DNA of 64,000 nt from an uncultured Thiomicrospira sp. (GCA_965195345.1 OZ239628.1:1120001-1184000); one strand, 5' to 3'; shown: positions 18,001 through 45,000, counted from the first letter of the stretch. Numbers: made by a program.

Positions 18001-21000
18001 AGATGAAGAAATAATGAAATGCGCTCAATCATGGAATGCTTTTATTAACAAAAGATTTGGTGGTATGCATGGTTTTCTTGAACGCTACGGCGTTGAAGTA
18101 ATGATGGTATTCAATACAGGATATTTGCTTTTTACAGCAGCTGATCATAGAAAAGCACCCACTGATCAAGAAGAGGTCAAAGCTGGTGCAGCACCTAAAA
18201 CAACCACGCAAACAATAGACCCATTATGAGAAAAGACGGAAAAATCACGCTTATATTAGGCGTTACTGGATCGGGTAAAACATCGATCGCAAAGGCTTTG
18301 ATGAAATCGCACAAGCGTATATTAGCGTATGATCCAAAACTGGAATTTTGCCAGTTATCAGGATTTGTTAAAACAGAAAGCCAACGTCAATTGTTGGAAA
18401 AACTAAAAGCAACAAAGGCAAGTGGGCGAATCGCGCATTGTGTCGCGCAATCCTCGAAAGAATTTGACTTTTTCACGCGATGCTTTAGCAATTGGGCGCG
18501 TCAAAAGGAATGCACGGCCGTTGTTGAAGAATTAGCAGCTGTTACCAGTGTAGGAAAGGCGCGCGATGGTTGGAATATAGCAGTCAATCAATCAAGAGCA
18601 TTAGGAGCTAATGTATTAGTTTTGGCACAAAAACCCGAAGAGATAGATAAAAGCACACTGGATCAAGCAAAAGAGATTTATTGTTGTCAAGTGTCGGCGA
18701 AGACTGCAAGCTATATGGGCGATCGCTTTGGATTAGATGCTAAAGCATTAAAATCATTTCCAAGTGAACCATTGAAGTTTATTCGCATAATTGCAGGTAA
18801 AGGATTAGATTTGTCGAATGGTAAAATTCAATTCAAAGATAAAGAACCGATGCTTTACAATGGGAAGAAAGAATTAAAGGGGTAGAGATGAGCACAAACA
18901 AACAAGCATTAGCAATATTTGAGAACGACAAGCTAAACCATGTTTTATATGGTGCAGTTGCGGGCGGTCTTGGTATAGCTATGACTGGATCAATGACGGG
19001 TGGCTTGTTCGTTTCGGCTCTTGTTGCTGGTGGCGTTGAAATCTACGATTATGTTACAGGACGAGGAACGTCTTCTTTTCTTGATTTTCTCGCAACGATC
19101 AGCATCCCTGCTTTGTTATTCGCGGTTGAGTTGCTTATTAAGTAACAATCCCCCCAACCGCGAAAACATGTGAAGCACCCTGCGGGGTGCTTTTTTTATT
19201 CTTTATTTATCGGGTCGTCATTTTTCTGTATTTCATATCATAGATGATCTTTAGGATCGAAGTCTTCAGGAAAAATTGTGTGGCTGTTATAAGTAGCCCC
19301 TTTTAAATTCGCCTTTTGTAAATTTGCGTATTCTAAATTCGCCTCTTTTAAATTCGCACCTTCTAAATTCGCCTCTTTTAAATTCGCCTCTTTTAAATTC
19401 GCCTCTTTTAAATTCGCCTCTTTTAAATTCGCCTCTTCTAAATTCGCCTCTTGTAAATCCGCCCCTTGTAAAATCGCCCTTTCTAAATTCGCCACTTGTA
19501 AATCCGCCCCGTATAAATTCGCCCCTTTTAAATCCGCCCCGTATAAATTCGCCACTTGTAAATCCGCCCCTTTTAAATTCGCCCCTTTTAAATCCGCATC
19601 AAATAAAGACGCCTTTTGTAAATTCGCCCTTTCTAAATTCGCCTCTTGTAAATTCGCATAAAATAAAACCACCATTTCTAAATACGCCTCTTTTAAATTC
19701 GCCTCTTTTAAATTCGCCTCTCTTAAATTCGCCCTTTCTAAATTTGCCTTTTCTAAATTCGTTTCTTTTAAATTTGCCTTTTCTAAATCCGCCCCATGTA
19801 ACTTCGCCCTTTCTAAATTCATCCCTCCTAAATCCGCCACTTGTAAATTTGCAACCTCTGACGCATCTATTTTCTTACTCTGTTGTAGTGTTGGCATTGT
19901 TGGTTTATTGGCTCTTTCGGTGCTCGTGAGTATCAAGCCTCTAGTAATACTATCAATCTGCTCGCTAAAAGCGGGATAATTTCTTTTTAATATTGCTAAT
20001 GACTTAACACCAATACAACGACTCACTAATTCAGGTGATGCCAGTAAATTATAGCCATGAGATAGTGTTGATGTGTTGATGCTCTCGTCTGTTTTTTCAA
20101 CTTGCTCCTGTGATTTTTCAATCTGATTTTGTGATATTTCAATCTGAATTTGTGTTTTTTCAATTTGTTCTCTGGTGTCATTTGTTCTGAAGTACCACAA
20201 ACCAATTAATACAGGGAGAGATAGTAATAGAAAGCGCATAGAGTGTCCTGCATAATTATTTTCGTCAGTGATTTTCCAAATATCTAAAATAAATTTAGTT
20301 ATCTCAGTAGCAGATAGGAAACCCAATACAGCTAATGCAGAAAGGAAGAACAATCGATTCATCTTTTTTTCAGATGGTTTTTCTGGATTCTTCATGAAAA
20401 AATACACTACGAAGAATGTAGCGAAATATGAAAGGCAGTAGAGAAGGAGCACTAAAGGACTTTTAATTCCCGTTTGTTTAAGCGTTTCCATTGTTCTTCC
20501 GTTTAGAACAAGCATTAAAGAATCTATATTTTCCGTTTGTATTAACCATTCCATTGTTCTTTTCCTTTTTATTTTGGTTTTGTTAGATTATCAAGTGAAT
20601 TTTACCCTCTCCGTCTGCGAAAGTTAAAAAAGTGCTTGACACGCGTCTGCATGTGTTTTGTATAAGTCGCTTTTAATTATTAAATGGCTGTTTTACTTTG
20701 GAGAAAGAATGAACAAAAGCACAATGAAAACGATTACGGGCGTAGTATTTACTGCTGCGGTCGCATTCGCAACGGTTGCAATTGCAACGCGTTTTAAGCC
20801 AGCACGCAAAGTGTTGAACGTTGACAACTATTAAGGGGTTGCAATGAGAATTAGACAACAAAAACTTGATTCGCCTAATGGAGGCGGATTTGATAACGAT
20901 TTTATTTTTACCCTGCCAAAAGGCATCAGCATTCATGAAGTGGCATTCGTGCTTTCTGCAATGGCTATAAGTGATGTCAAAAAGGTAGTGGTTGAAATAG

Positions 21001-42000: not shown

Positions 42001-45000
42001 GAACTCGCTGCGTAACTTTCTTGAGACTCATTACCATCAAAGGATAGAAGTTCAATGATGCAATCAGAAAAGAGAGTAGTTAAAAACATGCCGACAATAG
42101 AAAGAATTATTAAACTTATAAATCGCCCTTTTTTTGTTTGTGTAAGGCATTCCCAAATCTTCATTCCTTTTTTCTTTTTTTGCTTAAACCATTCGATTCT
42201 TTGTTTAGAACTGGTGGAGAAAAAACATAAAAGAAAAATGGCAACTACTAAAGTAATAAATTGCTTTAGCATCGGGCTAAGACTAATTTGCATGATCCAA
42301 TTTTCAATATTCATTTTTCATTCCTTTTTTTATTCTTCTTTTATAGGGTTGCCATTTTCGTCCACTTCAATCATGTCGTTTTCTTCAGGATCGAAATCTG
42401 CAGGAAAGATTGTGTATCTGTCATACTTCGCCCTTTGTAACTTCGCCTCTTGTAACTTCGCCCCTTGTAAATACGCCCCTTGTAACTTCACCTCTTTTAA
42501 ATTCGCCCATTGTAAATTCGCCCCTTGTAACTTCGCCCCTTGTAAATACGCCCCTTGTAACTCCGCCCATTGTAAATACGCCCCTTGTAAATACACCCCT
42601 GTTAACTCCGCCCCTTGTAACTTCGCCCTTTCTAAATTCACCCCTTGTAACTCCGCCCCTACAAAATTTGCAACCTCTGAATTCTTTATTGCTCCTATCT
42701 GTGAACCTGGTACTTTTTGTGGATTGGCTCTTTCTTTGCTGGTGAGTATCAAATCTTTAGTAACATTATCAATTTGATTGGTAAAAGCTGGATAATTTCT
42801 TTTTAAAGTTGCTAATGACTTAACACCAATACAACGACTTGGTAATTCAGTTGATGCCAGTAAAGTATAAGCATTGGATAGAATTGCAGTATGGATGCTC
42901 TCTTGTGCTTTTTGGATTTGTTCTCTGGTGTCATGTGTTCTGAAATACCATAAACCAATAAATACAGGCAACCCCAATAATAAAACTCTTATTGAACTCG
43001 CTGCGTAACTTTCTTGAAATTTATCACCATCAAAGGATAGAAGTTCAATGATGCAATCAGAAAAGAGAGTAGTTAAAAACATGCCTACAATAGAAAGAAT
43101 TATTAAACTTATAAATCGCCCTAATTTTGTTTGTGTAAGGCATTCCCAAATCTTCATTCCTTTATTCTTTTTTTGTTTAAGCCATTCGATTCTTTGTTTA
43201 GAACTGGTGGGAAGAAGACATAAAAGAAAAATGGCAACTACTAAAGTAATAAATTGCTTAAGCATCGGGCTAAGGCTAATTTGTATGAGCCAATTTTCAA
43301 TATTCATTTTTCATTCCTTTTTTTGATTATTAAGTGAATTGTGAAGCACTCTGCGGGGTGCTTTTTTATTTTTTGTTTATCGGGTAGCCATTTTCGTCTA
43401 CTTCAATCATCCCATGATCTTCAGGTTCAAACCCTGGAGGGAATTTTGTTTCAGTATCATAAAAAGCTCCATCTAAAAGTGCCGTATCTAATTTGGAATT
43501 CAAGTCCGAGGAGAGCATGCTATTAACATCTAAACCAAGTGCCTTTGCCACTTGATGATTCATGTCTGCTGGGCAAAAGCATGCACCTTGTAAGTTAGCA
43601 CCTTGTAATTTACTTTCCTTAAAATCTACCTCTATAAAAGTCGCATTTTCAAAGTTTGAATACCTTAAATCAGAATAGGAAAAATCAACAAAATGCGAAA
43701 TACTATTGGGAAAATTCATCCCTGAAAGATCCACATACATAAGGCGTAATCTTTCCTTATTATCAGAAAAACCGTTTAAAGAAAGAGCAGTAGTAGATTG
43801 ATCAAGTTGAGTTTGGATAACTGAACTTTCAACCGTTTGCTTCAATACAGCCAATGTGACTAATCCAAGTCTACGGGCATTGACATTATTAGTGCTAATT
43901 AAATTTAATCCATTTGATAAGATGGAGGTGTAAGTGTTCTCCTGTGATTTTTCAATCTGCTCTTTTGATTGGGTAGTCTGCTTATGTGATATTTCAATCT
44001 GCTCTTGTGATTTTTCAATCTGCTCTTGTGTCTTTTCAATTTGTTCTCTGGTGTCATGTGTTCTGAAATACCATAAACCAATAAATACAGGCAACCCCAA
44101 TAATAAAACTCTTATTGAACTCGCTGCGTAACTTTCTTGACGCTCATCACCATCAAAGGATAGAAGTTCAATGATGCAATCAGAAAAGAGAGTAGTTAAA
44201 AACATGCCTACAATAGAAAGAATTATTAAACTTATAAATCGCCCTTTTTTTGTTTGAGTAAGCCCTTTCCAACCGAACCGTCTGAACCATCGATAATACT
44301 TCTTGAAAAAAGCATAAACTTTTGACTGTTTTAAGAATTCTGTTCTTGATAAATTAACAAATTGTTTTATTTTTATTTGTTTCAACCATTTCCAATACTT
44401 CTTAATCCATTCAAAAATATTCATTTTTCATCTCTTTTAGTTTTTGAGTAAGTGAATTTTACCCTCTCCGTCTGCGAAAGTTAAAAGGTTGCTTGGCACG
44501 CGTCTGCATGTGTTTTGTATAAGTCGCTTTTAATTATTAAATGATTGTTTTACTTTGGGGAAAGAATGAACAAAAGCACAATGAAAACGATTACGGGCGG
44601 TGGTATTTACTGTTGCGGTCGCGTTCACAACGGGCTAACGCCTTAAGAAGGGTATTTTTAAAAAGATAGTGTCGTCTTTACGGCTAATGCCAAGCCTAAA
44701 ACGCCTAAGATTGTTATAACTATTTTTTTGTAGGTTTTATCAGATGTTCCAGCAAACCGTTTGGATCCTATAATAACCCCGATAATAAGCGCGGGTAAGA
44801 GCCAAATGGTACGGATTGTTGAAGTTTCGGTGAATAAGCCTTGAGCATATCCGCTGAGTGTTGCATAGAAACCAGTGAAAAAGAAAACAGTTATCAGTGA
44901 AGCACGCAAGTGGGCAATTTTGATGTCGGTATTTAACAATAATACGACAATCCACAAGCCACCAAAGGAGAATAATCCCGACATGAAACCTGAAATGCTA

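Follow-up and report, generated by a model that had tools for sequence, protein, structure and literature searches.

Two PM2-like prophages and the remnant of a third, in a 64,000-nucleotide stretch of an uncultured Thiomicrospira sp. genome (GCA_965195345.1, OZ239628.1:1120001-1184000; hereafter, the window), carry five genes for membrane-tethered pentapeptide-repeat proteins (PRPs), all antisense and all in the slot that separates the packaging ATPase gene from the capsid gene. Judged from their sequences and surroundings, they are best read as paralogous alleles of one moron, an accessory gene with promoter-like and terminator-like signals of its own, carried in PM2-like temperate phages. 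The membrane-tethered PRP is previously undescribed. Protection of the lysogen against other phages is the function with the best support, and we put it forward tentatively. Hardly any work has addressed the accessory genes of tailless temperate phages that contain a membrane; if the reading is true, a corticovirus-type prophage would here be seen plainly to carry, at one defined site, a gene that diversifies and benefits the lysogen.

The slot genes, their signals and their architecture

All five open reading frames (ORFs; P0001 to P0005, here alleles 1 to 5) are free of stops and can be aligned over one architecture, and all five match the Pfam family Pentapeptide, PF00805, which is defined by tandem A(D/N)LXX repeats (E 5e-12 to 1e-62, 45.6-207.4 bits against a cut-off of 20.2). 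An earlier note on this DNA had described five antisense genes of one architecture in this position and had picked out two motifs, and both descriptions stand: R.LLL.LPV.I.LW.FRT.DT is invariant in the five proteins and T.FP..F.P is present in every one. The common plan consists of a transmembrane (TM) hairpin ending in the invariant LP-x4-LW-x-FRT-x-D, a helical stalk, a helical cap, a pentapeptide solenoid and a C-terminal cap (C-cap), to which some alleles add one N-terminal TM helix. A tail beginning MIEVDENG is still translated in alleles 3-5; alleles 1 and 2 end at an in-frame TGA, downstream of which decayed codons (19190-19240 and 33394-33424) still resemble that tail. Only allele 2 carries a Q/E/K-rich insert of ~60 residues between helical cap and solenoid, which derives from short tandem repeats at 34197-34369.

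The genes are antisense to their surroundings and hold the same position in both prophages and in the remnant. Sections of a published account of PM2 place its ATPase gene last in the early-right operon and its structural genes in the late operon (PMC1950889), so that the slot coincides with the junction of early and late operons, a site that can host an antisense unit with a two-way terminator without any operon being broken. A promoter-like motif, TTAACT-N17-TAMAAT (M, A or C), occurs three times in the 64 kb, in each case leftward and directly upstream of one of the three slots (Table 1), against an expectation of 0.23 from shuffles; three occurrences were reached in 0 of 100 shuffles. The conserved leftward promoter proposed earlier is therefore retained as one promoter-like motif per slot, not per gene. 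In the remnant, P0004 and P0003 have no motif of their own and sit directly behind P0005, so the three probably form one unit. The called start of the unit 2 gene (ATG at 34891) lies upstream of the gene's own promoter motif, which makes the ATG at 34789, preceded by AAAGGAA, the likely start.

Terminator-like hairpins are present in two of the three slots (units 1 and 3), and the upstream region and the 5' and 3' ends of the genes are homologous in all copies. The motif at each slot and the hairpins in two of the three support, at the level of sequence, an organization in autonomous leftward units, and the features sought in a moron are observed as a promoter-like motif conserved in three of three slots and hairpins in units 1 and 3. 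Unit 2 (33376-33421) lacks both the hairpin and the 85/97-aa membrane-protein gene found in the corresponding intervals of the other two slots (18888-19237 and 40957-41300). Because the slot always holds a single gene family, we describe it as a diversifying moron and not as a mixed cargo hotspot; the variable cargo site of P2/P4 type invoked in the earlier note is set aside, since one family with homologous promoter, 5' ends and 3' ends is found there.

The part of that view which survives, apart from its cargo-slot framing, is that these are membrane-anchored proteins that diversify. The stalk, counted from the membrane motif to the helical cap, measures 8, 15, 22, 37 or 43 residues, which correspond to heptad steps, and solenoid length ranges from ~88 to 217 aa. 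Ratios of nonsynonymous to synonymous substitution (dN/dS), calculated by the Nei-Gojobori method on aligned codons for six allele pairs, were ~1.5 for the solenoids of P0003/4, P0001/3 and P0001/2, 1.08 for those of P0002/3 and ~0.5 in the saturated pairs involving P0005; for the TM, helical-block and C-cap modules of the first three pairs they were 0.28-0.63. The alleles are also mosaic: the hairpins of alleles 3-5 are nearly identical (dS 0.07-0.10), whereas the remainder of allele 5 is saturated (dS >1), and allele 1 has a cap and solenoid close to those of allele 3, with a hairpin that is distant. Contigs of four runs from one study were compared with 30000-49999; their joints between PRP genes were set aside, as they occur in short fragmented pieces and shared repeats give such joints. 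One contig of low depth (5) from a second sample in this study connects positions 33584 and 33830 of allele 2, with five other letters between them; it thereby lacks a net 240 nt in frame (16 pentapeptides), which could reflect a genuine difference in length or repeats collapsed in short-read assembly.

Topology and structure prediction, which the earlier note had proposed as a check, yielded a confident fold. The AlphaFold2 model of P0003, built from a 60-sequence alignment, has a mean predicted local distance difference test score (pLDDT) of 89.6 and places helices at 61-93 and 96-157, the second TM helix running straight into the stalk, followed by a small helical block (162-190) and a regular solenoid (222-310; pLDDT ~98). 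The segment before the hairpin is strongly basic (K+R 11 versus D+E 2 in P0003, 18 versus 2 in P0005) and the 18-residue loop between the helices is acidic (K+R 0-1 versus D+E 5-6), so that by the positive-inside rule the C-terminal solenoid is predicted to lie in the cytoplasm; no signal-peptide-like N-terminus was seen. Four of the solenoids are acidic, with isoelectric points (pI) of 4.3-4.9, and one is basic (9.3). The P, W, R and D of the membrane motif are invariant in 26 sequences, and the strict form LP-x4-hW-x-[FLY]R[TN]-x-D is found in 116 of 153 family proteins; on these alignments, the membrane module is conserved far beyond the needs of a mere anchor. The idea of a K-channel-like pore was rejected, there being no conserved inter-helix loop and no match to a channel family.

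Only the solenoid was matched when the model was compared with the Protein Data Bank (PDB) by Foldseek, best to 6omx (Alr5209; E 1.6e-9, target-normalised TM-score 0.84, 35% identity) and further to Rfr, Np275/276, HetL, Qnr, MfpA, AlbG and the repeat parts of NleL and SopA. In the comparison with viral models, the solenoid was matched by at least 32 pentapeptide proteins of phages (E <= 0.001), none of which covers the membrane module. A profile of the N-terminal module gave only chance-level matches to PDB sequences (best E 0.011), and the ESM Atlas returned only unnamed clusters with scores of at most 0.90.

The slots belong to an array that runs head to tail over 11235-44633, with the integrase followed by unit 1 (13.8 kb), unit 2 (14.3 kb) and the stump of a third unit (4 kb), beyond which host genes begin (TauE, amidohydrolase and aspartate/ornithine carbamoyltransferase). 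The integrase, left of unit 1, is the only one in the whole array, and unit 2 has no second copy. The same 31-bp sequence opens both units (12452-12482 and 26286-26316) and recurs at 40599-40629. Both units encode a double jelly-roll P2 capsid protein (259/257 aa; Pfam P2_N, E 7.6e-13, and P2_C, E 2.2e-16) close to a packaging ATPase gene, the combination by which, following sections of PMC1950889, a prophage was called PM2-like (Corticoviridae-type); a replication protein matching Phage_GPA (E 2.5e-53) and, by family scans, a D12 methyltransferase, an endolysin-like protein and a holin complete the inventory. Of the three units counted in the earlier note, units 1 and 2 are thus PM2-like, and the third is a remnant that keeps little but the slot: the C-terminal part of the ATPase gene (40616-40960), a 97-aa membrane-protein gene (40957-41250; product 53% identical to the 85-aa protein of unit 1), the three antisense PRP genes, and the intergenic/promoter region with ~10 codons left from the 5' end of the small pre-capsid gene, which is broken off there. 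By self-BLAST, the right flanks of units 1 and 2 are indeed nearly identical, as had been stated (97.8%; 20578-26101), but the left flanks are less so (91.8%; 14275-18870), and inside the slot only repeat-level similarity remains (~79%). At 2-8% divergence the units represent two related phages and not a fresh duplication.

Two further features of the units concern regions outside the slot. At 23369-24286, in the late region of this tailless phage, a collagen-repeat protein is encoded together with a protein matching tail-fibre assembly chaperones, and the two may form a spike or receptor-binding module. The right ends of the units carry tandem repeats of 36 and 46 bp (25774-26149 and 39987-40316), partly inside a gene that matches DUF1388 repeats.

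Table 1 Features of the prophage array, with positions counted from the first letter of the window.
Feature	Position	Strand	Remarks
Tyrosine integrase	11235..12386	-	Pfam Phage_integrase E 5.6e-20; phrog_1
PM2-like prophage unit 1	12452..26285	+	Self-BLAST, family scans
Packaging ATPase, unit 1	18226..18885	+	phrog_2666 E 6e-18; unit 2 copy at 32731-33390
GC-rich hairpin, unit 1	19172..19193	.	Terminator-like on both strands; between convergent 85-aa gene and PRP gene
PRP allele 1 (P0001), 438 aa	19238..20554	-	Stalk 37 aa; solenoid ~193 aa, pI 4.9
Promoter-like motif, unit 1	20599..20627	-	TTAACT-N17-TAAAAT; upstream of allele 1
Small membrane-protein gene, 41 aa	20706..20834	+	Opens capsid-side (late) block; capsid gene next, 20844-21623
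PM2-like prophage unit 2	26286..40598	+	Collinear with unit 1
PRP allele 2 (P0002), 455 aa by revised start	33422..34789	-	Stalk 8 aa; solenoid ~217 aa
Promoter-like motif, unit 2	34818-34846	-	TACAAT variant
Third-unit remnant	40630..44633	+	phrog_2666 match to ATPase C-terminus only; self-comparison
Hairpin copy, unit 3	41278-41299	both	Between 97-aa gene and PRP gene
PRP allele 3 (P0003), 337 aa	41301..42314	-	Starts 15 nt past allele 4 stop
PRP allele 4 (P0004), 325 aa	42330..43307	-	DNA 85% identical to allele 3; solenoid basic, pI 9.3
Hairpin copy, unit 3	43343-43364	+ only	After allele 5
PRP allele 5 (P0005), 352 aa	43366..44424	-	Stalk 43 aa; divergent solenoid; TM hairpin at dS 0.07-0.09 from alleles 3 and 4
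Promoter-like motif, unit 3	44456-44484	-	

Relatives of the membrane module and occupancy of the slot

The N-terminal module (TM hairpin, stalk and helical cap; ~160 aa) has no match in Pfam, NCBIfam, PHROGs or PADLOC, yet the N-terminal 215 residues match 160 representative clusters at E <= 0.001 among 1.84 billion, and pentapeptide repeats follow C-terminally in 60 of the 80 relatives scanned, the remainder being mostly short. Naming and testing a module that is absent from four family libraries and present in at least 160 protein clusters would allow the whole family to be annotated. The module is rare: by profile search it occurs in 6 of 400 genomes sampled from the class, this genome counted, and a set of 61 close and class-level relatives contained it in three, this genome and two congeners. 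A back-translated motif scan of one genome per species (185,579 species) returned 14 loci in ten genomes, all of them metagenome-assembled genomes (MAGs). Six MAG titles name Candidatus Porisulfidus, Poriferihabitaceae or Spongiihabitans, which are sponge-associated candidate taxa; the other four comprise one Spirochaetota, one Proteobacteria and two titled only Gammaproteobacteria bacterium. The link to MAGs with such titles would connect the family to a virus-rich symbiotic niche. The same scan of 2.9 million viral contigs found nothing, neither the 50,697 phage records nor the 72,556 plasmid records gave a match to the N-terminal module by tblastn, and the capsid protein as sole query found no relative in the genome-contig or viral-contig collections. 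The family gene is disrupted in two distant genomes (L066:8124-9040 and L065:8627-9091), being divided between two overlapping ORFs or cut by a TGA.

Homologues scattered without a link to the slot would have spoken against the earlier view, and here the outcome is divided. In this genome the module is confined to the five slot genes, and the genome's own frmA/frmB-like locus has none. The two congeners, by contrast, carry two and five copies in chromosomal islands, as tandem arrays of 2-3 divergent paralogues, and these copies, like others elsewhere, are unlinked to any PM2-like element: BLAST against the window proteins found no recognisable phage gene in the congener islands, and the capsid query found nothing in the two congeners or the sister genus. 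The TauE gene that flanks the array on the right has no match in the congeners at E <= 1e-10 by which the integration site might be recognised there. One congener paralogue (L016:9511-11871) encodes 786 aa with 20 Pfam Pentapeptide stretches, a solenoid several-fold longer than that of any window allele. In a FastTree phylogeny of 158 N-terminal modules, rooted at the midpoint only, the five window alleles and three proteins of one 39.6-kb metagenomic contig (P0006-P0008) form one clade (local support 97), and the congener copies form a separate clade of 17 that does not neighbour it. The phage-borne lineage is therefore a branch of its own, with no recent capture from host chromosomal copies.

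The congener site (L016:5541-9326 and L018:11592-16563) lies between TusA/M23 peptidase genes and an ADH/esterase pair. Its cargo is PD-T4-3, UmuD/UmuC and SRAP in one congener and Olokun with two unknown genes in the other, followed in each case by 2-3 PRP genes; since different cargo occupies the same site, the site is a variable island. The corresponding slot was surveyed in three other PM2-like prophages, all from the 400-genome class sample, and, against the expectation of a shared hotspot, the ATPase gene is followed directly by the capsid gene in all three, with a gap of 216-284 bp. The insertion is accordingly a trait of this phage lineage.

Proposed protection of the lysogen and competing explanations

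In the explanation we favour, a two-helix hairpin tethers the protein to the inner membrane, its second helix ending in LP-x4-LW-x-FRT-x-D on the predicted cytoplasmic side. From there one long helix, made up of 0 to 5 heptads of EQIEKTQ type, would hold the helical cap and the right-handed solenoid, variable in length, in the cytoplasm. The lysogen would express the genes. The conserved membrane module would do the work common to all alleles, as an oligomeric membrane effector or by docking on a conserved membrane machine, and the fast-changing solenoid on its adjustable stalk may serve as a recognition surface for the DNA-handling or ejection proteins of an incoming phage. The outcome would be exclusion or abortive defence, through the blocking of entry-stage proteins at the membrane or through membrane-level abortive action once the solenoid is engaged. 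Such a combination of constant membrane part, heptad-step stalk and fast-changing solenoid would be a simple and testable design for a membrane-proximal recognition device. A bolder version, about which we are frankly doubtful, would make these proteins a new single-gene immune receptor family, in which a membrane effector with a gate motif, a heptad-adjustable ruler helix and a hypervariable cytoplasmic solenoid that senses phage DNA-handling proteins were carried and diversified by corticovirus-type prophages, at the junction of their early and late operons, and domesticated by hosts on prophage decay.

The triplicated slot genes are the main intact part of the decayed third prophage, which we count in favour of a moron that benefits the lysogen. 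Anti-phage activity gains indirect support from defence genes beside homologues at outside loci, of which 16 were examined with unequal flanks of 2-10 kb and with neighbours partly scanned. Olokun OloA/OloB (E 4e-87 and 2e-184) lie two genes from a PRP gene in one congener, whereas the syntenic island in the second congener contains PD-T4-3 (E 7e-105) as well as UmuDC and an SRAP protein. Directly upstream of the homologue at L033 is a gene for a type I restriction enzyme (E 8e-100); a BstA-like protein (E 3e-17) is encoded at L029, and a ThsB-TIR protein (E 1e-12) at L066, in an island that also holds DUF4007 and DUF2726; at L064 a SIR2_2-TPR protein, a weak match, is encoded 1.6 kb away.

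Several observations weigh against this reading. Known defence genes adjoin homologues at 5 of the 16 outside loci as a raw count, and the other 11 have no recognisable defence neighbour, some of them being uninformative. PADLOC-DB 2.0.0 gives no family for four of the five PRPs, and P0002 is matched through its Q/E/K low-complexity insert only (E 1.8e-4 and 3.2e-3). The promoter-like motif and the hairpins are consensus matches only. Solenoid dN/dS is not clearly above 1 in three of six pairs and is treated as suggestive, because ambiguity of repeat register and homogenisation inflate the ratios. A uniform DNA-mimic surface was ruled out, as one of the five solenoids is basic. Finally, at least four outside loci lie among housekeeping genes, namely between lepA and acpS-pdxJ-recO-era-rnc (L046), between acs and rpsT (L017), beside plsY and rib/nusB genes (L065) and beside miaB and phoH (L067).

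These last settings suit an alternative interpretation, in which the PRP is a cellular membrane protein with a housekeeping or regulatory role that might tether or titrate a DNA-binding or membrane-associated host protein; the prophage would simply bring along a copy, to the benefit of the lysogen in a way unrelated to phages; the strong conservation of the membrane motif likewise suggests one conserved cellular partner. We consider this unlikely because a housekeeping role accords poorly with presence in only 6 of the 400 class genomes, with tandem arrays of divergent paralogues, with highly variable repeat number and stalk length, with residence in variable islands of the congeners and with persistence in a decayed prophage. 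A service to the phage itself seems more unlikely still. In this view PM2-type genomes replicate at the membrane, and there a DNA-mimic solenoid would engage gyrase/topoisomerase, a host nuclease or a protein of host defence, as a counter-defence or as part of the life cycle. Qnr, MfpA and AlbG solenoids are indeed among the fold and sequence matches, PM2 is described in parts of PMC1950889 as replicating near the cytoplasmic membrane, the viral pentapeptide proteins noted above match the solenoid, and a vibriophage pentapeptide-repeat protein is reported to counter the Sucellos system (bioRxiv 10.1101/2024.07.02.601686). However, the gene runs against both of the operons beside it and has a promoter-like motif to itself, the slot is empty in the three other PM2-like prophages, the gene is retained where the rest of the phage decayed, homologues occur also in genomes that yielded no PM2-like element to the capsid query, the NCBIfam Qnr and MfpA scores fall far under their cut-offs, and none of the viral matches covers the membrane module.

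A role towards an animal host, as a eukaryote-like repeat protein, is proposed by analogy with the ankyrin proteins of sponge-symbiont phages, for which the 'ankyphage' gives a precedent (bioRxiv 10.1101/608950), or with PipB2-type effectors. It could account for the sponge-associated titles of six of the ten motif-scan genomes, and the name Porisulfidus does occur in the abstract of a sponge genome note; PipB2 is also the best NCBIfam partial match of P0001. We nevertheless regard it as improbable. The predicted cytoplasmic location of the solenoid weakens any host-effector reading, as does the lack of a signal-peptide-like N-terminus; the PipB2 score, at 165.7, falls short of its cut-off of 354, the flanks examined showed no secretion genes, and phage defence in a virus-rich niche would explain the habitat signal just as well. 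That the genes are functionless, repeat-driven ORFs is scarcely credible: simple repeats do dominate their 3' halves and an in-frame stop cuts the tail of P0001 and P0002, but all five ORFs are open, the TM module has a dN/dS of 0.28-0.37 (P0001/3 and P0003/4), the fold is predicted with confidence and the module is common to the 160 representative clusters. We retain lysogen protection by a diversifying moron as the working interpretation, with the reservations above.

Comparison with known systems

The solenoid resembles Alr5209 (PDB 6OMX), Rfr23, Np275/276, HetL, Qnr, MfpA and AlbG in its right-handed quadrilateral form and in the type of its C-terminal cap, and penta_Alr5209 is the best NCBIfam domain model for the PRPs. 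Unlike those proteins, which are small and soluble or lumenal, the PRPs carry the solenoid as the C-terminal third to half of a membrane-tethered chain. P0001 exceeds the cut-off of the Alr5209 family NF052603 (153.4 bits against 125) by summing three repeat stretches, P0003 and P0005 score 77.6 and 46.0, and the PRPs are 3-4 times longer than the model. Membership of the Qnr/MfpA class, taken as a soluble dimer of ~180-220 aa with a whole-protein score over the NCBIfam cut-off, is not indicated: P0001 reaches 58.5 bits against 240 (Qnr) and 62.2 against 360 (MfpA), the other alleles score lower, and the architecture differs. The PipB2 match likewise spans the repeats only, as does that to PipB (117.9 bits against 274), which places the PRPs outside both families.

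As genetic units, the slot genes are most like prophage morons, the cargo of P2/P4 hotspots and BstA, all accessory genes with their own promoter-like and terminator-like signals, set antisense between phage operons and variable among otherwise similar phages. The difference from P2/P4 hotspots is that the carrier here is a tailless corticovirus-like prophage, and that one family diversifies in place where those sites hold exchangeable systems.

Among immune systems, a likeness is seen to HalA of Hailong, in which a membrane module, a long central helical part and a cytoplasmic repeat or crown domain are joined in one polypeptide, according to portions of PMC13586616 and PMC13434031; the former also describes, as the effector of a Hailong-type system, a membrane protein that combines a channel domain with pentapeptide repeats, and states that PADLOC 2.0.0 contains no Hailong model. 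The PRPs differ in that they match neither IRK nor any other channel family, and the slots hold neither the channel-type TM domain nor the adjacent HalB nucleotidyltransferase gene that define Hailong, with no nucleotidyltransferase gene in or beside them; the 46 PDB fold matches at E <= 0.001 include no HalA chain. Pentapeptide repeats are also listed among the predicted sensor repeats of bacterial NACHT immune proteins in parts of bioRxiv 10.1101/2022.07.19.500537. None of the three precedents (Hailong-type, NACHT and Sucellos) is homologous to this membrane module. The analogy with NACHT/STAND repeat-sensor proteins is functional only, as the PRPs have no NTPase module and their candidate effector is a two-helix membrane hairpin, but the arrangement is alike, in that a repeat which forms a superstructure and varies fast is coupled to a conserved effector or signalling module; were the anti-phage role true, pentapeptide solenoids would be added to the repeat types used as immune sensors.

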